Shown here: one piece after another, positions 10,467-31,463 of the stretch
How the letters are laid out: each line of letters begins with the position of its first letter
Position numbering within the stretch: the stretch's first letter is position 1
From: a virus
Lineage: Duplodnaviria; Caudoviricetes
Reading direction: 5' to 3' (one strand)
Virus record (IMG/VR): IMGVR_UViG_3300026484_000486
Coordinates: 1-43,136 of that record
DNA length: 43,136 nt
The notes under the pieces: model-generated
Seen by the model: the letters and a program-made list of their open reading frames with translations, nothing else
What the model was told of the DNA's origin: nothing
The model's database searches: none
Made by a program: the position numbers and the translations under genes

Positions 10467-11060
10467 ATGGCACGTCCAAAAGGAACAACACGAGCGAAAA
10501 AGCCCATACTTAAGAGAGAGTTTGAGCGACTCATAAACGCAGTAAACAGAAGCTTGGAGATAAAAAGCCCTACAAAGATGAAATTAACGAGAGCTTTTAC
10601 ACTTTTGTATCTTACTGGGTGTCGCGTGAGCGAAATAGCAGAACTAAAAACAAGTGATGTTTCGTATATGATAGAAGAGAACGAGTACTCTTTAGCAAAT
10701 AACACAAAGACAAAGAGTGCAAGACTTATCTCGTTTGATGAAGATTATATGCAAATAGAATTTCTAAAAAAGATACTACCTCTTGATGACGGGTATCTTT
10801 TCGCAAAAAACAACTCAAACAAAGCTATGACAGTAAGTGCTTTAAAATTACTAATGAATAAATTTATTCATAGAGTTTTAGGAGATTTTTATTCTACGCA
10901 TAGTTTTAGATCAGGCTACATTACAACTGCACATCAGCTCGGTTTATCTCTTGAGCATATTAAAACAGATATAGGGCATAAAAACATAGCAACAACTGCC
11001 CGCTATGTAACAGTTACCAGTGCAGAGATTTCCCGAGGGAAAACTTTGCGTGAGTGGTAG
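10467..11060 (+). CDS. Short tyrosine recombinase (catalytic domain only), resolvase-like
   Basis: Full catalytic set R (GCRVSE), K (TKTK), HxxR (HSFR), H (GHKN), Y (TARYV); no arm- or core-binding N-terminal domains; immediately upstream of parA. Confidence 0.9.
   Translation: MARPKGTTRAKKPILKREFERLINAVNRSLEIKSPTKMKLTRAFTLLYLTGCRVSEIAELKTSDVSYMIEENEYSLANNTKTKSARLISFDEDYMQIEFLKKILPLDDGYLFAKNNSNKAMTVSALKLLMNKFIHRVLGDFYSTHSFRSGYITTAHQLGLSLEHIKTDIGHKNIATTARYVTVTSAEISRGKTLREW
11029..11043 (+). other. Candidate parS site 2
   Basis: Exact 15-mer, ~110 bp upstream of parA. Confidence 0.72.
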
Positions 11061-11065
11061 TGAAT

Positions 11066-11130
11066 TTAACTATACGCTTTTGAGCGTGTAGTTATGAAAA
11101 AGTATAGTTATACAATATGAAACTATACGC
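11066..11130 (+). promoter_or_regulatory. parAB promoter with four copies of the (T)AACTATAC(G) half-site, including palindrome TAACTATACG-N8-CGTGTAGTTA, and -10 TACAAT
   Basis: Half-sites at 11067-11076, 11085-11094 (inverted), 11102-11110 (inverted), 11121-11130; TACAAT at 11111-11116. Confidence 0.7.
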
Positions 11131-11152
11131 ATTACTAATGAGGGGTTAGAAA

Positions 11153-11764
11153 ATGACAATAACAGTAGCACATACAAAAGGCGGAGTAGGTAAGAGCACA
11201 CTTGCGTGGCATCTTGCACATGCTTTAAAAGAGATAGGGAAGAGTGTTACACTCATAGACCTTGATTTTCAACAGACACTTTACTTCGTAAACCAGATAA
11301 GAGGTCTCGAGGATATAGAAGTGCTGCAACCGCAGACAGTGCAAGAGGTTATGAAGCTTCTTGTTGGAAGTGAGCATAAAAGTGATTATTACATAGTTGA
11401 TGTAGGTGGATTTGACAGCGACATCAACAGAACAGCTTTAGAGTTCTCTCATAAAGTAGTTGTTCCAATAAGTGAGAGTGTTACAGAAGTCTTAGGATTT
11501 AAAACATTTGAGGGCATCATTAACGAGCTTGTACTTAAAGATACGGAGTTTAACATTGTTCTTAATAACATCCACCCACTCACACGTAACTTTTCTATCA
11601 TAAAAGAAGCCATAGGAAAAAATTACAAACTCTTAAATACAGTTATACGAAGCAGAAAAGTATATAAAACAACCCTTGGTGTAGGTGCTAGTGTATTTGA
11701 TACAAAAAACGACCTGGCAAAAGAAGAGATAAGAGGGCTTAGAGATGAACTTATCAGCCATTAA
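11153..11764 (+). CDS. parA: ParA family partition ATPase (short, no N-terminal HTH)
   Basis: Deviant Walker A TKGGVGKST, LIDLDFQ, YIVDVGG. Confidence 0.93.
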   Translation: MTITVAHTKGGVGKSTLAWHLAHALKEIGKSVTLIDLDFQQTLYFVNQIRGLEDIEVLQPQTVQEVMKLLVGSEHKSDYYIVDVGGFDSDINRTALEFSHKVVVPISESVTEVLGFKTFEGIINELVLKDTEFNIVLNNIHPLTRNFSIIKEAIGKNYKLLNTVIRSRKVYKTTLGVGASVFDTKNDLAKEEIRGLRDELISH

Positions 11765-12584
11765 CAAAGCAACAGCAGGGAAAACGCGAACAGGTGGGGT
11801 AAGTCCTTTTATGGAACTGCCTTTAGATAAAGTATATGCAAATCCACAGCAACCACGAAAAAAGTTTGACGACATCGAGGAGCTTGCCAGAGCTATCAAA
11901 CAAGATGGACTACTGCAGCCTATTGTTGTTGTTAAACGCAGTGACGGATATATGATAGTAAGTGGTGAGCGAAGATACCAGGCTCACAGACAAAATAATG
12001 CGACTACGATTAAAGCACACATCATAGAAGCAGATGAACATAAGGTCTTAGAACTCTCACTCATAGAAAATATACAAAGGGATGATCTTACAGACTATGA
12101 AATAGCAATGCACATTTCTAAACTATGGCTCTCTAAACGATACAGCTCCAAAAAAGAACTTGCAAATGCAGTCGGAAAGTCACAAACATATCTTTCTAAA
12201 GCTTTTGGATGTCTCAATCTTCATGAAGATATACGAAAAGATTTAGAGTTTAACAAAAGAGAGATAGGTCTAACAGTACTAGAAGAGCTCTCACGCATAA
12301 AAGACAAAGATATGCAGCTAGAGGCTTATAAACTCTACAATGATGGGGAGATAAAGAGAGATGACATAAAAGGGTGGAGAGATAAAGAGTGCCCTAAAAA
12401 ACTCAAGCCGGTAAAAACAGAGAAGAAAAAGTATGTTTCCTATGGTTTTGGAACAGTGAATGAGTTTGGAGACTTCATTACGATCATTAAAGGCGATGTG
12501 GAAGGAAGAATGTCTATAGATACACAAGACATTGTAAAAACAGCAAACAACTGTAATTACAAAATCACAATAGAGGAGATATAA
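11745..12584 (+). CDS. parB: ParB/RepB/Spo0J family partition protein
   Basis: NPQQPRKKF, LLQPIVV, CTP-binding GERR motif, LIENIQRDDL, HTH (KKELANAVGKSQTYLSK). Confidence 0.93.
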   Translation: MNLSAINKATAGKTRTGGVSPFMELPLDKVYANPQQPRKKFDDIEELARAIKQDGLLQPIVVVKRSDGYMIVSGERRYQAHRQNNATTIKAHIIEADEHKVLELSLIENIQRDDLTDYEIAMHISKLWLSKRYSSKKELANAVGKSQTYLSKAFGCLNLHEDIRKDLEFNKREIGLTVLEELSRIKDKDMQLEAYKLYNDGEIKRDDIKGWRDKECPKKLKPVKTEKKKYVSYGFGTVNEFGDFITIIKGDVEGRMSIDTQDIVKTANNCNYKITIEEI

Positions 12585-17597: not shown

Positions 17598-18668
17598 TTA
17601 TTTTACAATAGTATCTATAACTCCACTAGCCATTTCACTAGACTTCAGATAGTTCATAGTGAGATACTTCTTAATTGTATTGGGGTCATTATGCCCTAAT
17701 GCACCACTAAGATGAATACTGTCAAAACCTTGCTCTGCCATAGCAGAAACTATTACATTCCTAAGATAGTGAATTCCAAAATTATTATCGCCTAGGCGTT
17801 TTTTGAGTTTATCTGTTACTCGCCTTATATCTACTATATGATGCCCGGTAATCCTAGATTCAAACACCCATCCGCTCTCATTTTTAAAAAACTCTAAATT
17901 TTCTTTTATGACATTTGGTAAAAAGATTTTTTGCTCTTCATTATTTTTGGTGTCTCTCAAAATATAATAGTTGTTTTTAAAATCTATATCTTCCCATCTA
18001 AGCGAAAGTATCTCGCCCCGTCTTCTGCCTTGTAAAGCAAAAAGAAATAAAGAAAGATAAAACGGATCATCTCCAAACTCGTCATATATAGCTTTGTGAA
18101 TTTTAAGGAGTTCTTCACTTGCATGAGATACTATCTTTTTTGTTTTTGGGAGTTTTATTTTTATTCCATCTAACGGATTAAAAGATATAAGCCTGTTTGC
18201 TATTGCATTTTTAAATGCCGGAGCTAAAACTTCAAGAGTCTGTTTAATGGTACGAGGGGACAATCCTTTTTCTTCTTGAAATTTTATAGAATTTCTAATG
18301 TGCAATTGCCTCAAATCTACAACACGCTTCATTCCACAAATCGGTTTTATGTATCGTTCATAGTGACTGATTCTTATTTTAGTGTAGTTTGTGTCTGGCT
18401 GCTGTTCAAAAAACTTTTCCATAAAGTCGTTAAGTGTTATCTTTTCATTCAGTACAGTATCTTTCTTTTTATACTTTATAGAAATAAGTTCTGACTTTGC
18501 AAAGGTTATTCTATCTTTTTTATTCCATGAACTCTTTTCTCTTAAATCAATAAGTCCTCTATACCTCTTCTTTTCAAACATAAAATTATAAAAAAATACA
18601 GTATATTTACCATTTGCCCACAAATTGTTTTCAACTTTATGAGGATAATCTTCTTTATTAATAGCCAC
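17598..18668 (-). CDS. int: Phage integrase (tyrosine recombinase)
   Basis: 356 aa; R (GRRRGEI), K (TKN), HYLR, LGH, Y (KKYL); adjacent to arm repeats and att core. Confidence 0.95.
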   Translation of the reverse strand: MAINKEDYPHKVENNLWANGKYTVFFYNFMFEKKRYRGLIDLREKSSWNKKDRITFAKSELISIKYKKKDTVLNEKITLNDFMEKFFEQQPDTNYTKIRISHYERYIKPICGMKRVVDLRQLHIRNSIKFQEEKGLSPRTIKQTLEVLAPAFKNAIANRLISFNPLDGIKIKLPKTKKIVSHASEELLKIHKAIYDEFGDDPFYLSLFLFALQGRRRGEILSLRWEDIDFKNNYYILRDTKNNEEQKIFLPNVIKENLEFFKNESGWVFESRITGHHIVDIRRVTDKLKKRLGDNNFGIHYLRNVIVSAMAEQGFDSIHLSGALGHNDPNTIKKYLTMNYLKSSEMASGVIDTIVK

Positions 18669-18692
18669 AATATAATCCCTACTTTATATTAA

Positions 18693-18728
18693 TTAGGTGT
18701 TCACTTAGGTGTTCACTTAGGTGTTCAC
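18693..18728. repeat. Integrase arm-type sites, left: 3 x TTAGGTGTTCAC
   Basis: Exact 12-bp tandem repeats directly upstream of int. Confidence 0.85.
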
Positions 18729-18832
18729 TTTAAAGATAAAAGTATATCTAAATAGAGATAAATATAGAAATCAATCATCATAAAATAGGCGTATATAGGG
18801 GATAACATAGCAATATATAAAATAGCCTCTTT

Positions 18833-18842
18833 GGCTCATAAC
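18833..18842 (+). other. attP core GGCTCATAAC (tRNA-CAT anticodon loop)
   Basis: Lies between two clusters of arm repeats and shares GCTCATAACGG with the anticodon arm of the adjacent tRNA. Confidence 0.75.
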
Positions 18843-18902
18843 GGAATTGTGAGAAGTATGGTAAAGCCCTAAAACATAGGCTTTAAAAGGTTTTAATTTT
18901 AT

Positions 18903-18926
18903 TTGGGTGTTCACTTGGGTGTTCAC
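18903..18926. repeat. Integrase arm-type sites, right: 2 x TTGGGTGTTCAC
   Basis: One-base variant of the left arm repeat, same orientation. Confidence 0.85.
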
Positions 18927-18940
18927 TTTGTTTTCTAAGT

Positions 18941-19017
18941 GGGTTGTTAGCTCAGTTGGTTAGAGCTCGCCGCTCATAACGGCGCGGTCGAGTGTTCGAG
19001 TCACTCACAACCCACCA
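18941..19017 (+). tRNA. tRNA with CAT anticodon, non-initiator (Ile2-lysidine or elongator Met), encoded CCA
   Basis: Full cloverleaf: GGGTTGT/ACAACCC acceptor, GCTC/GAGC D stem, CGCCG-CTCATAA-CGGCG anticodon arm, GAGTG-TTCGAGT-CACTC T arm, ACCA end; G1-C72 pair excludes fMet. Confidence 0.95.
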
Positions 19018-19678
19018 CTTTATTACTTTCAATTACTTTTTCTTTTTCCTGTTTCATTAACTGCTCAAGCTGTTCAACACTCATTTCATTAAGATCTTCT
19101 ATGTTGTAGTCACCATTATTATTAAATATAACAGTATCCGGTGATTTACCAAATCGCGCCTCTTTTGCAAGCTTATGAATCTCACTGCTCGCTTTAATGT
19201 CTGCCTGCTTTATTTTCGTAACATCTTTTTTAACTTGATTAGAAAGTACAATGCTACTCAACATTGAGTTCTTAAACATTTGGGCATCAAAGTAATCAGC
19301 TTGTACGGAAGCAAGTAGTGTTATGTCGGCTTCTGCTTTTGCCTGCAGTTCTGCATTACTGTTTGAAAGATTCAGTATTCCATTTACTTCTATCTCTCCA
19401 TCTTTTGTAACACCATGATACTTAGTAATTCGATTTTTCATCTCATCATAAACACTCGTAGCTTCTAACTCTTTTCTTAACTGCTTTGCTGTCTGTTCTA
19501 CTTTACCTGCCTTAGAACCTTTTAACCATATGCCACCATACTCTTCTCGATCATCATTCTTCCAATCACTCAGTGTTGCAAGTCCTACATTTTCCTGCTT
19601 AGATATATCGCTCAAAGTCATATTCATAACTTCAAACAAAGCTCTACATCTAAATCTTATCTCAACATCCCAAGCCAT
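19001..19678 (-). CDS. Putative terminase small subunit
   Basis: N-terminal HTH (TLSDISKQENVGLATLSDWK), central helices, C-terminal DLNEMSVEQLEQL pattern typical of TerS; last codons overlap the tRNA 3' end. Confidence 0.55.
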   Translation of the reverse strand: MAWDVEIRFRCRALFEVMNMTLSDISKQENVGLATLSDWKNDDREEYGGIWLKGSKAGKVEQTAKQLRKELEATSVYDEMKNRITKYHGVTKDGEIEVNGILNLSNSNAELQAKAEADITLLASVQADYFDAQMFKNSMLSSIVLSNQVKKDVTKIKQADIKASSEIHKLAKEARFGKSPDTVIFNNNGDYNIEDLNEMSVEQLEQLMKQEKEKVIESNKVVGCE

Positions 19679-19964: not shown

Positions 19965-22900
19965 TTATTTTCCCTCCTGTATCTTTTTCAACTGTTTTTC
20001 TATCTGTGTTGTAATTATTTGTAGCTCTTCATTCTTTTTATCATAAGCACTTTTTATCATACGTTCTTTTTGTGCTTTAGATAACTTCTTATCATATTTT
20101 GTAGTTTCAACACCTACTTTGATTTTTGTGAGCGTTCTATTTACTTTTTTCAACATAATGTCTAAAACAAAATATGCTTGATTCTCTTTAGAAGACATAT
20201 ACTCTTTTACATTTTTTCCTTTATCTATAAAAGCCTCTTTCTTCTTTTTATTAAAACTTGCTTTTACTGCACTTGCTTTTTGCATAAGCTCATAATATTT
20301 CTCAGTATATTTTGTGCGAGTATCTACAGGCTTGCCTCGAAATCTGTATGTTAAAAACTCTATCGGGTTACGAGCAAAAGGTCTTTCCCCCCACGCTTTT
20401 TTATTCCATAACATATTTTCAGTAGCCTCTTCAACCATTTTTGCAGTAAGCCCAAGATAACCATCAACATAATGCTGCATTTTAATAGGACTCGCCCCGG
20501 TTGCTTTTCCTACTTCTTTATAAAGTAACGGAGTTGTTGCAAAATACTGATCACTTAAATCATCAAGATTTTGCATATAGTGAGGTATTATCTGCGCTCC
20601 TGTCCAATTCTTATTTGTCATGTCTTCAAGTATAGGCTGAAAAAGTCCACTCACATCACCAACACTAAACATTGTTTTTGCGCTCCACATAAAATCTGTT
20701 GCAGCTTCTTTTCCATGCTTTGTGTATATTCCATCTGCTACTATTTCCGGTATTGCAGAAAATGCAAAACCTATGTCGTATGGTCTTGGAATTTTTATAT
20801 GCTTGTCTCCAACAAAAAAGTGCCAATATAAAAGCTTTTCATCTCGAGTTAGTTTTTTATATCTGTCATCATCTCTGTTTTGCAACCAAAGAGCAAGGGT
20901 AAAACCTACGATCATTCCACCCGTAGCATAGATTTTTATCTTGTGTCTTTGTATCTCTCCGAGTTGATTTTTAAATTTAACAGCGTTGCTAAATTTCATT
21001 TCTCCACTTATAGTAAATATTCTTCTTGCTGTTTTGTCTATTCCTACTATTCCTGCTTTCATAAATGGAACAGTAGCCATAAACCCACTTAATGCTCTAT
21101 CGCTGCCTTTTATTGCGAAATCTGTACTCACTTCTCTCGCTTCAAAAGCACTTTGCATATTGCTTTTCCCTGCTTTTTTTGAGAGTTCAAAATCTCCAAC
21201 TCTAGTGCCATACTCAAATATATCCGCACCATATTCCATAGCACTTATTACTCTTGAAAGAACATTAAAACCACGAGCTACTTTTAACATCTCCATAGCT
21301 TGTGACTCGCCGCCAAGAGAAGTTCTCCGTGTTCCATATCCTGCACCACTTGCCATAAATTCTTTATATACCTTGCTTTGTGATATAAAATGATACATCC
21401 CTTTTAAACTTGTATAAACAGGTATAAATTTATTTTTACTTAATACTCCTGCACTTACCGTATCTCTTGTAAAGTTTGTAAGATAAAAGAGAGGATTGTT
21501 TGTAATATTCCAAGTCATAATGTTTTTTATGCTCATCATTGCTTGAACCGCATAATTATATTGCTCTCCTCTAAAAGATGTGAGGGCATCCACAAGTGCA
21601 GCATCTTTTGTTTCAAAATATACTCTCGTATCATTTATGATCACACTGTCTATATAACTGCTTCCATCTCCAACCGGTGGATGACCGTGAGTCCAAAACT
21701 CCAATGCAGCAGGATTGTCTAAAAGATTTTGCTCTATTTCACTCACATCAACTATAAGGTCACTCTGCATATCTCCACTGAGTATTTGCCCGTCTTTTGA
21801 AACTGTTACACCAAGTTCAGCCATTATCTGCGCTACTTTTTTCGCTTGTTGTTGCAAATCACTTTTCACGAGTTTGTCTGCACTGCTTATCTTTGTAGCA
21901 TATACACCACCCATGTTGCTTTTCTCTAACATTTCATAAAACTTTGTTTTCCCTCGGGAAATTAAAGCCTCTTTGATGTTTGCTTCAAGACCGTCTAAAA
22001 TATTCTCCATAATGTTTCCAAGAGAATGTGTTCCACCTGTAAGGCGTTTTCCTATAGCAGCACTTCCAACACCGCCATTTTGAATGGACTCTATAACACG
22101 GTTAAAAGGAACATAGTTTTTATTCATCTCTCTAAAATTAGCTCTTTGAGACGTTGTTATAAGATTCATGTCCACATAAAAATCAAGCATCTTGTTGTTG
22201 AACTCTTGATAATCATCAAACACATCTAAAAATTCAGGGTATTGTTTTTCAAGTTGTAACCCTGCTTCTATCTCATCTTTTGTTATAAGGTTCTCTCTTC
22301 CTTGCGCCATCAACTCTTTTGCTCTTTTTGCCACAAGGTAATCGCTAAAGAGTCTTACTCTCTCTTCGCCTTGACTTGTAACAGGTTCAAGCACTGCATT
22401 AAACGACTTGCCACTGTATGTAATGTCTCCGTTTTCTTTTACAGTAGGTACACCAAAATTCATTGTAGAATGGAGTATGGAACTCACACCATTAACAAGT
22501 TGTAGCGACTTGTAAGCACTATCCATAGCATCACCGCTTACATCGCCTTTTATCTCTGCCTCAATACGTTTGATAGTATGTAGTCTGTCTATAACCTTTT
22601 GTCTTATATCTCTGCTTATCTCTTTTTGGCTACGCTCTATTTTCTTAGCTGTCTTGTTGAGCTTCCCACCTTGTTTGGAACGTAAAGATACATCACTTCC
22701 TTGATAATAAAATTGATGCATACCCTCTTGAAGTCTTGTGAGCTTGTCATGCAATGTTTTATCACTTGCAAGTTTTGCTTCAAAATCTGCTAACATATTT
22801 GGAGCAACAGATTCAAGTATATTGTAGTTCGTGAGATAAAGTCTTATAAACTCTGCAAACCCTTCACTAATAGATAATTTTGGATCTGTTGTATAACTGA

Positions 22901-25900
22901 GTGCTTTTACCTCTTCTTTGTTTTTGAGTATTGCAAGTCTAAAGAAACTCCCCTTTGCTTTCTTACTAGGATTTTTATAAAAGTAGTCTAGGTAGTGAGC
23001 CATCTCATGCGCCATTATTTCAACGTCACTATAATTTTTAACACGAATAGCACTGTCATCTCTCTTGTAAATACCAAGAGCACTTTTACCTTTTATCTTT
23101 CCATCATAAAGACGGTTACCGATTATATCGCTCATATAAACACGAATAGAATCTGCATTCATAGGCTCGTCAATAGTAGGAAGTGCTATCGCTTTTGCAC
23201 CAATATAGAGAACATCTCCGATAGGTCTCTCTGGCAACCCACTAAAACTGTAACACGGTACATAATTTACACCGGCTTCATCATATCCATTCGCTCTTGC
23301 ATAACTGTTTGTTGCTTCTGTTTCTTGAAGAACTGACTTTTTCAAGTTATTTTTGCTCTCTATTTTAAGTTCAGTAGTAGCATCTAAAGTTTTGCCGACA
23401 ACAGGAGTTCGCATAAAACTTGTATTTGCTTCTGTGCTAGTATCATTGTTTTCACTCTCAAGTATCTGCTGCTCTGTATAAGCCTCTTTGATTTTTTCAA
23501 TAGCAACATTTTTTGCATCATGTGTAAACTCATCGGTAATAAATTTTGTTTGTGCTATCTGGTCTGTTTGCTGTTTCTCTCTCTCTTTGAGCTTTGCCTC
23601 AATCTCTTTTATCTCATCTTCATACTCTTTGATGGTGTTAAAATACTTCGCTTTTCTTTCATTAAGCCCATCTATATGCTTTTGTAGTTTTTGTGCTTTC
23701 TCCTGCGCATCTTTGATATTCTCATACTTAGGAAGATTTTTTTCTTTAAGATTTTCATCTATGCCGTCTATTGCATTTTTGTAGTTTTGTATAGAACCTT
23801 TTTTTATCTCTATATCAGATTTTAATTTTTCTACAATGTTGCGTAAATTATTTGCATCTACTACTGCATTGTCAATGACTCTCTGTTTTCTCAGCCGCTC
23901 TCTCTCAAAAGGATCACTCTCCAAGTCTATTATCGCTTGATACGGATCAGTTGTGTTCGTGTTGCTTATTGAAGAGACACCATCCTCAACATCTATATCA
24001 CTATTATCTGTAAATCCATATATATCATTAAATCCTCGTTTTGCTATTACAATGTCATAACTTCTTTTGTCAAATGTCCCAAGTTGAAAAAATTGATGTA
24101 CACGTACAGATGCGTTTTCATTTCCTTGTCTCACACCTCTATTGCTCCTTTGTTCTATCTCATCTGGACGGAATGGAATATCAAGCTGATATATGTCCGT
24201 TGTTTTTTTATTGAGATCTACACCAACACCAAGCTTTGAAGTATTTCCTATTATTACTTTTATCTTCCCGTCATTATACATATCCATTATCTTGTTAAGC
24301 ATATCAGGCTTGATTGAGCCTTTCGACACTTTCCCAGTATTAGGGTTTACAAATCCACCGCCATTAACAAAGACGACTTCATTGTCATCATACAAGCCAC
24401 TTGCAAGTATCTTGCTTCGTATCTCTTCATGCGTACTTGTAGTAGTACCGTCTGCATTTTTTACAGTCAATCTGTCAAGAAATATTATCTGCCCACTGTT
24501 TGAATTCTTTTTATACTGCTTGGAAACAAGCTCTATTGTTTTTTCTATTTTGTTGTTTTCTGCTGACTGTTCATTTTCTTCTATCAGCTTCGCAAGGTCA
24601 TCTGGAGATAATTGTGATTTTCCTTTTTTACCAACATCATACAAACGCAAATCAATACTCGCACTTCTTCCTGCTCCCATAGCGACAAGTGGTATCTCTA
24701 CATTTTCAGGCAATTCCTGTCCGCTTTTTACTTTTTTTCCATCTTCTATGGCTTGAAGCAGTCTATGCTGCACATCGCCAAATATAACCTCTCCTGCTTT
24801 TGAAAGTTTTAAGTAGTGCTGCACATCTATCTGCTTAGGTCGTGGTAAGTCTGGCATAGACTCAAAACCTTTGTAGTCCACAAATCTATCAAGTATCTTT
24901 GATAACCAGTCAAGGTTTTTCATGCTCGCTAAACCTTCACGCTTTACTATCTTACCAGTTGAGTCTGTAGTCTCATAATTTTCTATATCATAAAATGTAT
25001 CGACAAAATCTTTAGAACTCTCAATGCCGTACTCTTTTAGTATATTTTCATCAAGATGTTGCAAAAGCGTATAAAGTTCAAGTGGTTTGTTTGGTGTTGG
25101 TGTTCCTGTAAGCAGTATTACGTTGTTTCCATTATTGTGTTGAGAAACATATTTACTTTTAAATCTAAAGTCATAACTTCTCATACTCCCCAGTGTTGCA
25201 CTGTATGGCTGCGCTCCCTCTTTTATATCCTTTGTTGTAAGGGCTTTACCGCTTTTTGAGAAGTATTTTATAGAAACAGTTGCACCAAGTCCACCTTTTA
25301 CATCATTGCCCTGCATTCCTATATTTTTATAGTACTGCACTTCATCTGCTATAAGTCCATCAAAACCAAGCTTTGCAAAATCAAACTCTACATCTCCACC
25401 ATATGCAGCTCTTAGCCCATTCTTTAGTGCTTGTCTTTTGTTCTCAGCACTTACTATTTCTTTTTGCTTTTTCTTGCTTGCACCTTCCTCTACGTCTTCA
25501 GCTTTTATCATCTGTGCTACTAAATCATCTACATAATCACTCAGCACTTCACTAGGCAGTCCAAACTTTTGAAACATTGTATCGCCTATGATTGTAAAGT
25601 CATAACGATTATTTGCAAGGTCAAAAGCCATCTGCTCTTTTTCATCCTTACTTAACTGTGTCCACTCTTTAGCATTTCCTTTGTTTTTCCCTGTTTTTAC
25701 TTTTGGAAATTCAAATACACTTGCATCTGGATAAAGTTCCTTAATTGTATCTTCCCACTGTGCTATTGTATTTACAGGAACTACAAAAAGAGGTTTTTTC
25801 ATTACACCCTGATCAAGAAGATTTTTTACAGCAACTACGGCTGTGATTGTTTTTCCACCACCAGGAGCAAAGGCTAGGACTCCTTTTTTATTAAACACTA

Positions 25901-28900
25901 TCTTCTCGGCACCCTCTGCTTGATGCGATTGCATTTTAAAAGGTTTTCCTCTAAAGCTTTTAGGTATATCACGAAGCAGAATTCCTGTCATAGCAGGGCG
26001 AACATAAAAGTTTGAATGACGATTATACTCATCTGTAAGCATCTCAGAAAGACCCTCTTTTTCTATGAAACGCATTACATCAGGTATAAGAACTTCGTTT
26101 AACTGCTTCTCTGCGTCCATTGTTCTTTGTATATTTTCTGAATCACTCTCATCCTTGCCTTTTGGTGCAAGTGCCATTTTATTCAAGTATCTGTTATAAA
26201 GTTCTACTCGATCATATTTGCCATCAAATACTTCAGGGTTTACACTAAGCTCCCCTGTCTGCTTTTTAAGGAGCTTACTTTTTATAGCTTGAGGAAGCCA
26301 ACTCTCTCCACCTTTTACTTTTATTGATTTGAAGGGTATCGGAGTAGGGATTATCTCTTTTAGTTTTTTATGTTGAGCCTCATAGGCTTTTTTGCTTATA
26401 GTGCCAGCCTCATGCATTATTTTTAATGATTCAAGTTTTTTATATACATTTCCTGCATAGTACATAAATGCAAGTTGCACTTCATTTTCTGCATTTCTTA
26501 CAAACAACCCTTTGTCTTCAAGCTCTTCTATCTCTTTAGCGCTTAAAAATTCATACCCTTTTGATGTGTCGATAATACTGTCACTATTTGAGTAGAACAA
26601 TGCTCTGTCAATCAGCGGACTTTTTTCATCTATTTTTAATTTTCCACTGTCTTTAAATCGTGTCTTCTCACCATATATAGGAGCAGGGTTAAAATCTTTA
26701 TCAAAGTAGCTCATATACTCTTTGAGTTTTATCTCTGCTCTATGGTTTTTCATAAACTTCTTAAAAGCCAAATCATTATGTGGAGACTTCTCATATATTG
26801 CCTTGTAAGACTCTATCTCTTTAAGCGCAGTATTTAGTAAATTCTTATCTTCTTGCTTAACGGCATCTTCAGTAAGTGTCATTATTCTATTTAAGTGAAG
26901 TGCTTTATTTGTATTTACACCGCGTAATATCTCTCCAAACATAGCTTCTTGATCGCTCTCTTGAAATTTAGCTTCTTTGTCAAAATATATAAATGTATCA
27001 GCATTTATCTCACTATGAGGTTTTATTGTATCTACTATCTTAAATATATAACCATTATTTTTTGCATACTCTGTTGCATCTTCAAAGTTTATAAAGTAGT
27101 TCTCCTCTTTTTTGCTCTTTTTGAGTTTTTTGTAAGGCTCATAACTCAGTTTGATATTTTCAAATTTTGGCTCACCCTTTACTATCCATCCCTCTTTACC
27201 CATTTTTGTTTTATCTTTTCCTATGACAACTTCATCGCCTAGAAGATTTTCAGGATGCGCTATAAAATATTCATTCATAGCATAACCGTTCTTTGAGCCT
27301 ATATTTACAAACTGATTATTAACATCTGCCTGTCTTGACTCTACACCTGCAGGACGCTTTTGAATAAAGATAATATCTATCATTGTATCTGTATGTGCAT
27401 TCTTAGCTTGTGATTTTTCAGGAAGTCTAAATGCGCCTATCAGATCACCTCTGTCCATAAGATACTTTCTTAAAACTTTTGCAGTAGTTGTTCCATCCAT
27501 TGTGCCAGTACTTGTCATAAATGCTATGACGCCATTGTCTTTTACTTTATCTATCGCATGAGCAAAATAAAAATTATGTATTGCTTTAAATGCAGGTTTT
27601 ATTGTCATAGCATGCTCACGCATTAACATTTGCTCACTTGCAAACGGAACATTAGAGATTATAAGGTCGTAGTTTTTACCTTTAAATGTTTCAAAAGTCT
27701 CAGTATGAAAGTTTTTTATTTGTGGATAGAGTCTTTTTGTAACCTCTATATTATTCTTGTCTATATCTACAACATCCCATGAAACATCAGGATTAAAACC
27801 AACAAAGTTACCACTTCCAACGGCAGGCTCTAAAGATTTATCCATAACTACACCTGCTTTTTTGAGTGCATTGTACATAGCTTTTACTGTGGCATAATTT
27901 GTATAGTGTTGATTTACGGAGTTTTCATTAACAGTGTCAAGCCCACCCTCTCCAGTGTAGTGACGAAGCATTTCTCTGTCGGCTTCTGTAATATCTTCAA
28001 GTGGTTTTTTTATAACTTCAAGCGCAGCTTTGTTAAACTTCTTTCGTTCACCTTTTGTAAGTTCAACAGGTGCTTTGCCCTCTAAGCTGTAGCTCTTTGT
28101 GTCATTGCTTGATGCATCATGTTTTGATAGAACTGTGTTTGCATGAGTTGATTGTTGCTCATTATGTTTATTTGTTTGAGTGGTTGCAAGTCCGTCCACT
28201 CGTTCATCTGCATTGGATAATTGAGTTTTATCGCTTCCATCTCCACGAGATCCTGCAGGTCGTTTATCGTCTGTTGGTACTTTTTTTCTGTCGTTTGTAT
28301 CATTGTTTTTGTCAAGTGTGCTTTGTTTTGAAGTTGATACTCCAGATTTATCACTTGCTCTGTTAGCATCCTCACTGTCCGTATCAACTGCTCTTGGTGT
28401 TTCATTATTTACTCCTTGCTTTGCATCATTCTTTATTATAGCACTATCTACCAAAGATTGTATATCTTTTGCAAATTTATTACTTGTAAGCTCACTGTCA
28501 TTTACAAAGTGATTATTTCCAGATTCTCCTGTTTTTCGATTTACAGTTCTGTATAACTGCCCATTGAGTATATTTCCATTGAGATAATATGTATCATAAT
28601 TTGCATCTTCACTCATTCCTGCATCATAGTTTAGATTGACATATATTCCTATGTCACTGTTTGGCTTATAGAGCTCAAAGCTCATAGATCCTCCTGCAGG
28701 TGCTAAGTTTTTATTGACTCCATTAAATGTTTTCTTTTTACCTTTATTATCAACTGCAAATTCATATCCTAGTATTTTAGAAAGTTGTGCAACATATTTT
28801 GCTACATCTTTTTGTATTGTTTTTGCAACAGTATTATGTGGATACTCATGGTTTATTCCATCAGTAGAGTAAACTTTTTTCGTATCAAATACTAATCTTT

Positions 28901-31463
28901 TATCATCCTTGCTATCGGGTACACTTCTATCACTCTCTTTTTCGCTTCTGCTTTTGTGTATCCCTTGCTCTGCAGTGTTTTGTAAAGCTCCATTATCTTC
29001 GGTCTGAGTCTGTTTAATTCCTGCCTCTGTTTTTGTTGTGCTGCTCTCTCTTTGTCCGAGTGTTCCATCCTCTTCTCCTTGTAAATGATTGTTTAAAACT
29101 TTTGCAAGTTCACTTAGCTCTGTCTCTTCAAGTGGATTAAGATTCCATCTTTGGCTTAATTCATCAAATCTTTTTACTTCATTTTCAAGATGCGGATCTC
29201 CTGCTTTGTGAAGTGCTTGCATAGCTCTGTCTGATAATTCACTAGGCTCACCGTTTTTTGCATCTGTTAATGCTGTAATAACATCAGAGTAGGGCGTAGT
29301 ATCGCTTACTATATCTTTTGCCCAAGTCGGTGTTACATATTGCGTACTGCCCTTTGTATCAAACAGCGCATTTTGTCCTTTTGATTCAAGTCCTGCAAGT
29401 GTTCCTTGTTCTGATTGTATTTTTTTTGTGTCAGTACTTAAAAAATCATAGGCTCTATTAATCTCAGAAGGATGATATTTATTTCTAAGATGTTCTTTGT
29501 CAAGCTCTGCAATATCTGCTTTATTATAACTTTTTAGTTCACTGTCTAAGCTTTTTTGTGTCATAAGCTTTTTCACATGCTCAGCCGTAGCATCTTCACT
29601 GCCACCAATTGGAACAACACTGACATTTTGCAACTCCTCAGCTCTTGCACTTAGTTTCTTTGGAATTTTCTTTTTCTTTTTATCACTATTTATAATTTCA
29701 TCACTTCCAAGCTCTTTGAGTCTTACAGTGTCTATTTTGCTTTCAGGCTTGATGTTTTTTGTACTATCTTCTCCTGGAAGAGGAACTTCACGCTTTTCTT
29801 GTTCTTCACTAGCTTTAGGTTGCATATCTTCAACGCCGCCTATTTCAGACTCCAACTCTTTAAAACCTTTATCTATTGCATTAAGCCCGTTATTGTCGCC
29901 TACATCAATACCGCTATCTTCTGCTTTTTTTACAACTTCTTCTTGCACCGCAAGATTATCAACAGCTTCTACGGGAACTTCTATGTCAGGATTGTTTATA
30001 ACTAAATTTTCAAATTTATTTTGGATATCTTTTACTTTTGCATCAAGTGAACTTTTAAAATCAGCATACTCTTTGTCATCAACAGTTATATTTTTACCTG
30101 CTCCAAGAAGTTGTTTATTGTAAGAATCTTGAACAAATGCCTCGCGCTGTGCATCTTTTTTTTCTTTCGTGTAGCTGTTAAATACTTCTGTCCCTGTTGC
30201 AGTTGCACCACTCATAGCAGCACCCATTACACCACCGGCAACAGCTCCCGAAACAGCACTCTCAACATAATCGCCAACACTGCTAAGACCGTGTTTTGTA
30301 TTTTGCTCTTCTCCAAATTGTTCAAGAGGATTTTGTATTCCTTCTGTTCCTCCCTCTTTAAGCACACCATCTTTTGCCTCTTTGGCAATAACTTTTAGAG
30401 TATCTTTGAGCGTACCGTCAAGTGCAGTTTTGCCGACTTTTTGAACGACATCTTCAGTAATTCCTTTTAAACCAAATCTATCAAGCATAACACTTCCCAT
30501 AACAGTAGGCATTACATTTGCATAATCACTTTTATTTGGAGTAGCTCTATTGTTATTTTTAGCTCTTTTCTCAGCACTCTCTTGCACTCTTGATGCAAAG
30601 TAAAGCGGCAGAGTCCCTACCATTTCAAGCATATCGGGAATACTTGCAACACCTTCACTTGCTGCATAGCTTCCAATTTCCTGCCAACTGTCGACATCAA
30701 AAACGCCTCCAGAACTAAAAGCTTTTTTAACCTCATTCCAATCGTGCGTAGGTTTTTTCGCATCATTTATCTGCAACCTATTTTTCTCATAAATGAAGTT
30801 GTTCAAGTTATCACTTGCTTTACTAAACCATTGAGTTTTTTTCTTTGCAAGCTCTTTTTGATCTTTTGTCTGCAATCCTAAATGTTCAAGAGGTGATGTT
30901 GTAAAAAAGTCGAGGAGTTTATATGTAGATTGAATTGCATTTGATGTAAGTTCGTTTGTTCTGTTTACAGCTCTTTTTCCTACTTCGCTCAGTATGTCCG
31001 CATCTGGATTTTCATACTTTTCTCCATCTCCAAATAGAAGCTTTTTGCTTTTTTGCAGAAGGCTTTTATCGTCTTCTTTAGTAATATCGACATCGCTTAT
31101 TGGTTTAGTAACTGTAGCATCTTCACTTATTACGCTTTGTGGGGGAATAGTCCCAAAGGTTTGTGACGGAGTTATCTCTTGTATTTGATCTATCTTGTTT
31201 TTACTCTGCACAACATTTCCATCTTCATCAACGCTTGGAGCTATAGGATCATTATTAACTGCAAATTTTGTAGTAGTATTTACACTTCCATCTGTCTGTG
31301 CAAGAAAAAAGTTATCTTTAATGAGGTTTTGTTTCTCTTGCGGAAGTTGTACAAAAGAATCATCTGCAAGTTCTTTATCAAAGTAATTATGTATGATTTT
31401 TTTTCTTTGTGGTTCATCAAGAGCTTGGAACTCTTTGTCTTTAAATATATCAAGTTGTGCCAA
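19965..31463 (-). CDS. Giant (3832 aa) polyvalent DarB-like protein: adenine MTase + SNF2 helicase + HExxH metallopeptidase-like + LPD38-like C-terminus; probable ejected internal virion protein
   Basis: MTase motif I EPAVGSGNF (~27804-27830) and motif IV NVPF (~27642-27653); Walker A APGGGKT (~25848-25868); DEVQ (~25335-25346); LTGTP; QRSNRGVRQGN; AHEMAH (~22995-23012); KIPRPYDIG (~20770-20797). Confidence 0.85.
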   Translation of the reverse strand: MAQLDIFKDKEFQALDEPQRKKIIHNYFDKELADDSFVQLPQEKQNLIKDNFFLAQTDGSVNTTTKFAVNNDPIAPSVDEDGNVVQSKNKIDQIQEITPSQTFGTIPPQSVISEDATVTKPISDVDITKEDDKSLLQKSKKLLFGDGEKYENPDADILSEVGKRAVNRTNELTSNAIQSTYKLLDFFTTSPLEHLGLQTKDQKELAKKKTQWFSKASDNLNNFIYEKNRLQINDAKKPTHDWNEVKKAFSSGGVFDVDSWQEIGSYAASEGVASIPDMLEMVGTLPLYFASRVQESAEKRAKNNNRATPNKSDYANVMPTVMGSVMLDRFGLKGITEDVVQKVGKTALDGTLKDTLKVIAKEAKDGVLKEGGTEGIQNPLEQFGEEQNTKHGLSSVGDYVESAVSGAVAGGVMGAAMSGATATGTEVFNSYTKEKKDAQREAFVQDSYNKQLLGAGKNITVDDKEYADFKSSLDAKVKDIQNKFENLVINNPDIEVPVEAVDNLAVQEEVVKKAEDSGIDVGDNNGLNAIDKGFKELESEIGGVEDMQPKASEEQEKREVPLPGEDSTKNIKPESKIDTVRLKELGSDEIINSDKKKKKIPKKLSARAEELQNVSVVPIGGSEDATAEHVKKLMTQKSLDSELKSYNKADIAELDKEHLRNKYHPSEINRAYDFLSTDTKKIQSEQGTLAGLESKGQNALFDTKGSTQYVTPTWAKDIVSDTTPYSDVITALTDAKNGEPSELSDRAMQALHKAGDPHLENEVKRFDELSQRWNLNPLEETELSELAKVLNNHLQGEEDGTLGQRESSTTKTEAGIKQTQTEDNGALQNTAEQGIHKSRSEKESDRSVPDSKDDKRLVFDTKKVYSTDGINHEYPHNTVAKTIQKDVAKYVAQLSKILGYEFAVDNKGKKKTFNGVNKNLAPAGGSMSFELYKPNSDIGIYVNLNYDAGMSEDANYDTYYLNGNILNGQLYRTVNRKTGESGNNHFVNDSELTSNKFAKDIQSLVDSAIIKNDAKQGVNNETPRAVDTDSEDANRASDKSGVSTSKQSTLDKNNDTNDRKKVPTDDKRPAGSRGDGSDKTQLSNADERVDGLATTQTNKHNEQQSTHANTVLSKHDASSNDTKSYSLEGKAPVELTKGERKKFNKAALEVIKKPLEDITEADREMLRHYTGEGGLDTVNENSVNQHYTNYATVKAMYNALKKAGVVMDKSLEPAVGSGNFVGFNPDVSWDVVDIDKNNIEVTKRLYPQIKNFHTETFETFKGKNYDLIISNVPFASEQMLMREHAMTIKPAFKAIHNFYFAHAIDKVKDNGVIAFMTSTGTMDGTTTAKVLRKYLMDRGDLIGAFRLPEKSQAKNAHTDTMIDIIFIQKRPAGVESRQADVNNQFVNIGSKNGYAMNEYFIAHPENLLGDEVVIGKDKTKMGKEGWIVKGEPKFENIKLSYEPYKKLKKSKKEENYFINFEDATEYAKNNGYIFKIVDTIKPHSEINADTFIYFDKEAKFQESDQEAMFGEILRGVNTNKALHLNRIMTLTEDAVKQEDKNLLNTALKEIESYKAIYEKSPHNDLAFKKFMKNHRAEIKLKEYMSYFDKDFNPAPIYGEKTRFKDSGKLKIDEKSPLIDRALFYSNSDSIIDTSKGYEFLSAKEIEELEDKGLFVRNAENEVQLAFMYYAGNVYKKLESLKIMHEAGTISKKAYEAQHKKLKEIIPTPIPFKSIKVKGGESWLPQAIKSKLLKKQTGELSVNPEVFDGKYDRVELYNRYLNKMALAPKGKDESDSENIQRTMDAEKQLNEVLIPDVMRFIEKEGLSEMLTDEYNRHSNFYVRPAMTGILLRDIPKSFRGKPFKMQSHQAEGAEKIVFNKKGVLAFAPGGGKTITAVVAVKNLLDQGVMKKPLFVVPVNTIAQWEDTIKELYPDASVFEFPKVKTGKNKGNAKEWTQLSKDEKEQMAFDLANNRYDFTIIGDTMFQKFGLPSEVLSDYVDDLVAQMIKAEDVEEGASKKKQKEIVSAENKRQALKNGLRAAYGGDVEFDFAKLGFDGLIADEVQYYKNIGMQGNDVKGGLGATVSIKYFSKSGKALTTKDIKEGAQPYSATLGSMRSYDFRFKSKYVSQHNNGNNVILLTGTPTPNKPLELYTLLQHLDENILKEYGIESSKDFVDTFYDIENYETTDSTGKIVKREGLASMKNLDWLSKILDRFVDYKGFESMPDLPRPKQIDVQHYLKLSKAGEVIFGDVQHRLLQAIEDGKKVKSGQELPENVEIPLVAMGAGRSASIDLRLYDVGKKGKSQLSPDDLAKLIEENEQSAENNKIEKTIELVSKQYKKNSNSGQIIFLDRLTVKNADGTTTSTHEEIRSKILASGLYDDNEVVFVNGGGFVNPNTGKVSKGSIKPDMLNKIMDMYNDGKIKVIIGNTSKLGVGVDLNKKTTDIYQLDIPFRPDEIEQRSNRGVRQGNENASVRVHQFFQLGTFDKRSYDIVIAKRGFNDIYGFTDNSDIDVEDGVSSISNTNTTDPYQAIIDLESDPFERERLRKQRVIDNAVVDANNLRNIVEKLKSDIEIKKGSIQNYKNAIDGIDENLKEKNLPKYENIKDAQEKAQKLQKHIDGLNERKAKYFNTIKEYEDEIKEIEAKLKEREKQQTDQIAQTKFITDEFTHDAKNVAIEKIKEAYTEQQILESENNDTSTEANTSFMRTPVVGKTLDATTELKIESKNNLKKSVLQETEATNSYARANGYDEAGVNYVPCYSFSGLPERPIGDVLYIGAKAIALPTIDEPMNADSIRVYMSDIIGNRLYDGKIKGKSALGIYKRDDSAIRVKNYSDVEIMAHEMAHYLDYFYKNPSKKAKGSFFRLAILKNKEEVKALSYTTDPKLSISEGFAEFIRLYLTNYNILESVAPNMLADFEAKLASDKTLHDKLTRLQEGMHQFYYQGSDVSLRSKQGGKLNKTAKKIERSQKEISRDIRQKVIDRLHTIKRIEAEIKGDVSGDAMDSAYKSLQLVNGVSSILHSTMNFGVPTVKENGDITYSGKSFNAVLEPVTSQGEERVRLFSDYLVAKRAKELMAQGRENLITKDEIEAGLQLEKQYPEFLDVFDDYQEFNNKMLDFYVDMNLITTSQRANFREMNKNYVPFNRVIESIQNGGVGSAAIGKRLTGGTHSLGNIMENILDGLEANIKEALISRGKTKFYEMLEKSNMGGVYATKISSADKLVKSDLQQQAKKVAQIMAELGVTVSKDGQILSGDMQSDLIVDVSEIEQNLLDNPAALEFWTHGHPPVGDGSSYIDSVIINDTRVYFETKDAALVDALTSFRGEQYNYAVQAMMSIKNIMTWNITNNPLFYLTNFTRDTVSAGVLSKNKFIPVYTSLKGMYHFISQSKVYKEFMASGAGYGTRRTSLGGESQAMEMLKVARGFNVLSRVISAMEYGADIFEYGTRVGDFELSKKAGKSNMQSAFEAREVSTDFAIKGSDRALSGFMATVPFMKAGIVGIDKTARRIFTISGEMKFSNAVKFKNQLGEIQRHKIKIYATGGMIVGFTLALWLQNRDDDRYKKLTRDEKLLYWHFFVGDKHIKIPRPYDIGFAFSAIPEIVADGIYTKHGKEAATDFMWSAKTMFSVGDVSGLFQPILEDMTNKNWTGAQIIPHYMQNLDDLSDQYFATTPLLYKEVGKATGASPIKMQHYVDGYLGLTAKMVEEATENMLWNKKAWGERPFARNPIEFLTYRFRGKPVDTRTKYTEKYYELMQKASAVKASFNKKKKEAFIDKGKNVKEYMSSKENQAYFVLDIMLKKVNRTLTKIKVGVETTKYDKKLSKAQKERMIKSAYDKKNEELQIITTQIEKQLKKIQEGK
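21947..21961 (-). other. Candidate parS site 4
   Basis: Exact 15-mer within the giant gene. Confidence 0.7.

Follow-up and report, generated by a model that had tools for sequence, protein, structure and literature searches.

A Campylobacterota phage attachment site predicted to split the host tRNA-Ile2 gene and to replace it with a tRNA that the host promoter likely drives

INTRODUCTION

A phage genome that carries a complete tRNA gene behind its own attachment site raises two questions: what becomes of the host tRNA gene upon integration, and which promoter drives the phage copy? The window analysed here, which is a whole virus record of 43,136 bp, poses both of them. An earlier note on this DNA had proposed an attP with only an anticodon-loop core, which would break the host tRNA rather than rebuild it, followed by a replacement tRNA positioned to capture the host tRNA promoter. 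In our judgement, it is quite probable that this attP splits the host tRNA-Ile2 gene, that the spare tRNA replaces it and that the host promoter likely drives the spare.

RESULTS AND DISCUSSION

Genome and integrase of the phage

The window contains structural and lysis genes (terminase, P22-like portal, capsid and lysozyme); it also encodes a primase, ThyX, NrdB, ParA, ParB and two tyrosine recombinases. One recombinase is the integrase beside the attachment site, in which R215/R216, K241, H300-x-x-R303, H326 and Y335 are invariant among 34 homologues. At E<=1e-20 the integrase has 363 homologues; the named ones come from Sulfurimonas, Sulfurovum, Sulfurospirillum and other Campylobacterales, and the genome loci of the closest integrases are mostly in Sulfurimonas and Sulfuricurvum assemblies. 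Among integrases of phage records, none of the 25 listed exceeded about 30% identity, and all 153 were below 60%. The public runs that best hold the phage are labelled hydrothermal vent metagenome; none of the listed public runs containing it was an RNA run. The window is likely a temperate phage of a Sulfurimonadaceae host, and its att module is a candidate integration vector for Sulfurimonas and Sulfuricurvum. One 3,832-residue protein (19965-31463), with matches to SNF2-type helicase, LPD38 and DarB-like proteins, occupies more than a quarter of the genome.

The features referred to below are as follows:

10467-12584: second tyrosine recombinase (197 aa), then parA and parB; the integrated prophages of genomes G002 and G020 carry the same trio
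17598..18668, minus strand: tyrosine integrase, 356 aa (PF00589, E 4e-15; phrog_1 integrase, E 2e-38), pointing away from the core
18693..18728, plus strand: left (P) arm-type repeats, 3 x 12 nt TTAGGTGTTCAC, exact copies
18834..18844, plus strand: common core GCTCATAACGG, the stretch shared with host tRNAs
18835-18841, plus strand: predicted 7-nt overlap CTCATAA, equal to the tRNA-Ile2 anticodon loop
18863..18884, plus strand: imperfect palindrome in the P' spacer; a related motif lies in most spacers of sites with the same layout (type A, below)
18903..18926, plus strand: right (P') arm-type repeats, 2 x 12 nt TTGGGTGTTCAC, about 70 nt from the core
18941..19017, plus strand: complete replacement tRNA(CAT) with encoded CCA, tRNA-Ile2 class (Rfam tRNA, 65.6 bits, E 7e-14)
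19001..19678, minus strand: 225-aa phage gene, convergent with the tRNA, its last 17 nt overlapping the tRNA 3' end

Arms, core and spacer of the attachment site

The arm repeats reported in the earlier note, three of TTAGGTGTTCAC and two of TTGGGTGTTCAC, were found in their places as five exact copies in 234 bp; three further matches, with 1-2 mismatches each, occur in the 43 kb. Relatives have repeats at the same place as the left arm of the window, the units being element-specific. In run X2, a single contig of 2,019 bp spans the module from the integrase gene to the tRNA, including arms and core; it shows 6 differences from the window and lacks one arm repeat. Run X3 covers the layout up to the tRNA anticodon; in both, the left arm has only 2 copies. 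Because two more runs show it, the layout is not an assembly accident.

For the core, the earlier note had named the 10-mer GGCTCATAAC at 18833-18842. The 10-mer is present, but a second exact copy at 27136 within a gene makes it weak evidence by itself, and the spacing places the true shared core at 18834-18844 (GCTCATAACGG), G18833 being part of the phage arm. The motif CTCATAA was found 128-166 nt upstream of the integrase gene in 49 of 56 related integrase loci (duplicates counted; of the 7 without a core, two lack it through missing sequence); in 42 of these 49 core-bearing loci, it is separated from the proximal left arm by 115-117 nt. In the window, this distance, counted from the third left repeat, is 115 nt. 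On the left side of the loop, the related loci have no fixed bases (TGG, TGT, AGA, CAA), in contrast to the CCG of host genes, and the overlap is therefore predicted to be the 7-nt anticodon loop. The core flanks are variable up to the loop in attR, and from the second base past the loop in one attL. The 10-mer as core, which would also suit fMet genes, was ruled out by this spacing and by the 3' halves at attR.

As claimed earlier, no tRNA 3' half follows the core: in 18400-19300 Rfam detected only the one tRNA, and the folding of the stretch does not stand out from that of its shuffles. The palindrome in this spacer is likely a site for an accessory protein; it forms part of a 32-nt run that recurs unchanged in a fossil spacer of genome G219 (below). 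A sigma-28-like reading of the GCCGATAG spacer motif was dropped, as the motif is not kept in the spacer of the window. A promoter-like site on the minus strand of the right arm (18896-18925; chance level of the scan, 1.9 sites) matches the consensus and faces the integrase gene across the core; integration would sever the two.

Identity of the spare tRNA

The tRNA(CAT) on the strand of the core is complete and ends in CCA, as the earlier note had it, and the choice between Ile2 and Met that the note left to a check falls to Ile2. Besides fMet and elongator Met, the hosts contain a third class of CAT tRNA genes. The window tRNA scores 73/77 to the nearest host tRNA of this class, compared to 57 for elongator Met and 42 for fMet. 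It has G3:C70, C29:G41 and A73; in the third class, G3:C70 is present in 44 and C29:G41 in all of 46 distinct genes, whereas C3:G70 is found in all 8 fMet and all 3 elongator Met genes. The window tRNA does not share the pairs C4:G69 and C5:G68 of E. coli; it has T4:A69, as do 39 of the 46 third-class genes. G3 or A3 and C70 or T70 are described as marks of tRNA-Ile(CAT) (Silva et al., PMC1635315). The spare is thus of the same class as the target gene described below, with Ile2 signatures.

The tilS gene scored above cut-off in five of five hosts, and a search for tRNAs with a TAT anticodon gave chance-like matches only, though the same search also missed the GAT tRNA. tRNA-Ile2 is required for AUA codons, and it is presumably essential in these hosts. 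In run X1, the 77-nt tRNA forms a separate contig with a depth of 81, compared to ~22 for its flanks; the excess indicates near-identical tRNA sequence on other molecules in that sample.

Integrated relatives split the host tRNA-Ile2 gene

An exact pattern for the Ile2 5' half was run on 353 genomes of the Sulfurimonadaceae (the family of G001). It matched in 253 genomes, once in 223, a single copy thus being the rule, and two or three times in 30; all of these 30 were inspected and classified. In 15 of the 353 genomes, the 5' half runs into CTCATAA and a non-tRNA spacer, and a complete tRNA follows 96-141 bp on (G001, G002, G005, G006, G007, G020, G062, G063, G105, G118, G140, G219, G260, G284 and G285). 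In G003, the host gene is restored and followed by arms and then a complete spare; the remaining 14 of the 30 hold duplicates, copies at contig ends or other insertions. The left junction (attL) of the related elements is composed of the host -10 box, host 5' half, core, spacer, arms and complete element tRNA, and the right junction (attR) of integrase, arms, core and displaced host 3' half.

Two of the 15 elements are prophages close to the window: those of G002 and G020 share 78-79% identity in the portal, 73-84% in the capsid and 73-75% in the integrase. Both have the split 5' half and the spare at one end, and the integrase, core and host 3' half at the other. In the window, the final five codons and stop of the 225-aa gene (19001-19017) overlap the tRNA 3' end on the opposite strand, and homologues of this gene (76-79%) stand after the spare in both prophages. 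No match to the virion genes of the window was found in the islands of G001, G003 and G005; of their 67 long ORFs listed, the 39 scanned have metabolic, type I restriction or unknown functions.

These elements bear out, in relatives, what the earlier note had deduced from the letters of one genome: the site is an attP, integration splits the host tRNA and the spare comes to lie ~100 bp behind the host 5' half. They also support tRNA-Ile2 as the target: it is the third CAT class that is split while fMet and elongator Met genes are separate. In all five split genomes searched for CAT 3' halves, both latter genes stand apart and the sole intact third-class gene is that of the element. The two split-site matches are the only ones in 14 of the 15 split genomes, so that the element provides the only intact copy found there, although exact patterns, applied to host assemblies most of which are incomplete, could miss extra Ile2 copies; in G020, a different contig additionally holds the empty attB. 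No attL or attR of the window phage was found among the loose ends listed for public runs. Beyond this family, the tandem pattern (spacing 114-144 bp) was found in 0 of 250 genomes of the family of G009, where positive controls were recovered in 3/3 and the 5' half matched in 5/5; a sample of the phylum gave 2 of 401, both known already, and the pattern may not fit the Ile2 genes of other families.

Based on these relatives, we propose that the integrase recombines the 7-nt core with the anticodon loop of the host tRNA-Ile2 gene. Because the phage carries no 3' half, the host gene would be split, and the complete tRNA-Ile2 behind the right arms would become the only intact copy of the cell, to be charged, lysidine-modified and presumably essential for AUA decoding. 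The window phage is expected to integrate like its relatives, and such split-and-replace integration is, from the sequences compared, highly probable. Island finders that seek a duplicated 3' half would likely mis-map such sites, because only repeats of 7-11 bp and an intact-looking tRNA are left.

As the same 11-nt core also occurs within the phage tRNA and many relatives restore the gene, one could suppose that the crossover takes place in the phage tRNA itself, in ordinary restoring integration, and that the upstream core is vestigial. We consider this scarcely credible: only the upstream core has arms at conserved spacing on both sides, and the junction lies at this core in the 15 genomes, two of them with close prophage kin.

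Another reading makes the phage mainly a plasmid-like prophage whose tRNA serves lytic AUA decoding. It draws on ParA, ParB and the 197-aa recombinase (10467-12584), and on ATA usage, as ATA makes up 58% of the Ile codons in long ORFs of the window compared to 28-39% in host loci. The same three genes are present in the integrated G002 and G020 prophages, in which the ATA share is 47% and 24%, respectively; ATA use therefore does not track the tRNA, and with kin so inconsistent, codon use was rejected as the reason for the gene. Close relatives with a restoring site, moreover, have no tRNA within 700 nt of the integrase gene. Although phages with the second recombinase and parA/parB may have both integrated and plasmid states, we regard this reading as very unlikely and retain split-and-replace integration.

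Several unusual loci were also observed. A damaged element-type Ile2 copy is located on a second contig of 118 kb in G093 (L215, G093:C2, ~80430-80490), the chromosomal gene being intact. In G026, another island, of 7.4 kb, occupies the same gene (L211, G026:C1, 33198 and 40586), with a longer repeat that reaches into the D arm. In G261 (L200, G261:C331, 1425-1529), the integrase-side leader is followed by one pair of arm repeats and an element-type tRNA, with no core; this form may have arisen either by arm-repeat deletion or by assembly collapse.

Promoter of the replacement tRNA

If the host promoter is used, one transcript would run from it through the 5' half and the spacer into the spare (~155 nt from the -10 box) and would presumably be trimmed by RNase P. 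Of 58 distinct host Ile2 loci, 56 show a clear -10 box at a distance of 13-38 nt upstream. We made a promoter matrix from the host Ile2 promoters only; with leave-one-out scoring, held-out hosts had a median of 17.3 and a 10th percentile of 8.6. The best scores in 20 element spacers, which are partly near-copies and not independent, were <= -0.4 and within the shuffle range, and none of the 20 was host-type. Loose -10 hexamers numbered 8 in the spacers compared to ~15 in shuffles, two hexamers within 4 nt of the tRNA being unscored. Weak or other-sigma promoters, which are outside the single promoter type of the matrix, may be present.

The spare could instead have its own promoter in the spacer or arms, its proximity to attP being mere linkage of a split-and-replace system. 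Phage Fionnbharth, the one published case tested, sets this precedent with a tRNA that has its own strong promoter (PMC10865867). The spacers are AT-rich and contain the few loose -10-like hexamers, but no hexamer position is conserved and none of the 20 scores near host promoters. A TATTAT stands 14 nt before the tRNA, at host-like distance, in three of the 20 (the arm-less cases of G005, G105 and G118); in the window, the arms end 14 nt before the tRNA and thus occupy the place where a promoter would sit. One consensus match on the plus strand (18662-18690) is located in the left arm and would move to attR. We therefore consider an own promoter unlikely, though well short of negligible.

After integration, the host promoter is the sole recognisable one upstream of the spare, because the downstream gene is convergent and the integrase gene points away. 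G219 retains an intact host -10 box (score 11.4), whereas the anticodon and a D-loop G are gone from the first 5' half behind it. What counts against drive by the host promoter is that the transcript would have to pass the palindrome of the spacer and integrase bound to the arms. Weighing these points, we lean towards the host promoter as the main driver of the spare tRNA. If the spare depends on it, the rescue of the cell is switched on by the integration event, and an element tRNA can in the end become the host's own.

Self-immunity and serial replacement

The earlier note suggested that a C in the phage tRNA, where the core has its first G, may stop the tRNA from acting as an attB. This is not supported: the CCG-loop-CGG of the spare is identical to that of host genes, and a replacement tRNA in G219 has itself been split by a second element. 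Stem positions 27-28 differ between host and spare in 13 of the 15 split genomes, and might confer a weaker form of self-immunity, but hosts vary there too.

In G219, the host -10 box precedes a decayed 5' half, which differs from the next half by 8 mismatches and an indel and no longer has its anticodon. A first spacer follows, which has no arms and contains the 32-nt run identical to that of the window; behind it, another 5' half is interrupted at CTCATAA, and a second, arm-bearing spacer leads to a complete tRNA. The simplest reading of this sequence is that the spare of one element was kept after the loss of its arms and then served as attB for another element. Spacers without arms precede the Ile2 gene in 4 of the 353 genomes. 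In G005, G105 and G118, an arm of the restoring type follows the spare, and the left junction of a restoring element in G006 contains a type A element whose integrase is 46% identical. The attB sequence is complete in the spare, where another element can insert. Judging from intasome geometry, the integrase of the window is probably unable to use its own spare in cis, because the spare is only 138 bp from the core and the arms lie in between.

Comparison with known systems

By its anatomy, the attP of the window appears to be one of tRNA-dependent lysogeny, here in Campylobacterota. Guerrero-Bustamante and Hatfull (2024) described this lysogeny in the actinobacteriophages Fionnbharth K4, Cluster L and Gaia, with Ile2-CAT targets in OneUp and Mollymur (PMC10865867). 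The anatomy of the window and its relatives corresponds to the sequence-level definition given there (PMC10865867). Shared traits are a tyrosine integrase beside an attP with arm-type sites, an attB in a host tRNA gene (seen here in relatives, including the two close prophages), a short core (11 nt here, 8-17 bp there) from which the tRNA is not rebuilt, and an element tRNA of the isotype of the target. An overlap of the spare with the 3' end of an opposite-strand gene is likewise seen in Fionnbharth (gene 37 there; PMC10865867). Different from Fionnbharth, the spare of the window lies 14 nt behind the right arms, is co-oriented with the host gene and has no recognisable promoter. Different from the cases of PMC10865867 in general, ours belong to another phylum, are sequence-based and include natural integrated elements, non-phage islands, an intermediate form and serial replacement. 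The actinobacteriophage report found restoring and non-restoring sites among close relatives, speculated on a tandem spare acting as attB, and left open how frequent such lysogeny is outside Actinobacteria and how it originated from restoring systems; the words Campylobacter and Proteobacteria are absent from its main text (PMC10865867).

Outside Actinobacteria, a mid-gene break of a tRNA with an element copy as replacement is known, also on sequence evidence, from Sinorhizobium meliloti prophages like vB_MloP_Lo5R7ANS, which break tRNA-Leu(UAG) (PMC11476347), and from Lactobacillus johnsonii Lj965 (cited in PMC10865867). The S. meliloti case concerns two strains and another isotype, and the main text does not contain the word 'promoter' (PMC11476347). 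In ICEKp1, ICEclc and ICEEc1, an element gene comes under the adjacent host tRNA promoter after integration (PMC13023037); the captured gene there is the integrase, whereas here it would be the replacement tRNA, the integrase being at the other end. In the literature covered, mostly open main texts, we found no report of such a system in Campylobacterota, nor of host-promoter drive of a replacement tRNA. New here are a site with the anatomy of tRNA-dependent lysogeny in a new phylum, a natural intermediate series and, likely, the promoter-trap layout, all within one integrase family of sulfur-oxidising Campylobacterota that shows this anatomy in 15 natural integrated elements, phages as well as non-phage islands.

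Conventional restoring integration at the anticodon loop reportedly belongs to the sublocation scheme of Williams 2002. The restoring members of our integrase family use it with the same 7-nt anticodon-loop crossover and arm layout; different from them, the attP of the window has no 3' half and a right arm ~44 nt shorter.

Types of attachment sites and their evolution

The related sites are of two main types. Type A (the window, L002, L005 and L062) consists of the core, a spacer of ~60 nt, arms and a complete tRNA, and the free type A layout also occurs in run X2. The restoring type B (L003, L004, L006, L080 and L087) consists of the core, a tRNA 3' half and arms, with no whole tRNA within the 700 nt examined. 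The distance from core to right arm is 69-71 nt in the 10 type A sites with arms called and 109-116 nt in restoring sites, which makes up the ~44-nt difference between spare-only and restoring attP. A helical-phase argument for this shortening was abandoned, as 44-45 nt are not clearly whole turns.

After removal of duplicates and of the 7 loci that lack a core, we placed the labels on a tree of 40 integrases (8 type A, 9 type B, 3 ambiguous and 20 unlabelled). An integrated element was labelled on the assumption that attL and integrase in the same genome form a pair, with which the arm units agree wherever they were compared. For each label the tree requires 4 changes, which well-supported branches impose, compared to an average of 6.5-6.8 in shuffles. 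Three loci with integrases 93-96% identical have a restoring site (L035), both forms (L043) and a spare only (L036), which makes the order of steps testable. This series fits a gain of the spare and then a loss of the 3' half, the second scenario of PMC10865867; module recombination or loss of the spare would fit as well.

A wider proposal, to which we give slightly better than an even chance, is a promoter trap: phages and islands of Sulfurimonadaceae would carry a promoterless tRNA-Ile2 in an attP arm that turns on only after correct insertion behind the host tRNA promoter. An essential single-copy tRNA would then be replaced serially, since the spare is again an attB and outlives the arms, and restoring, restoring-plus-spare and spare-only sites would be steps by which dependence is gained or lost.

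Further variants were seen among the relatives. L042 and L070, with a 56%-identical integrase, have the core upstream of the integrase gene followed by an fMet-type 3' half, which reads as a target switch among CAT tRNAs. In the restoring site L114 (G008, ~1655-1670), a few bases resembling a tRNA start lie behind the arms, in the place of a type A spare; they are possibly the trace of a deleted spare. In L109 (G002, 1520-1575), the spacer is 42 nt shorter than in the other type A sites and contains no palindrome.
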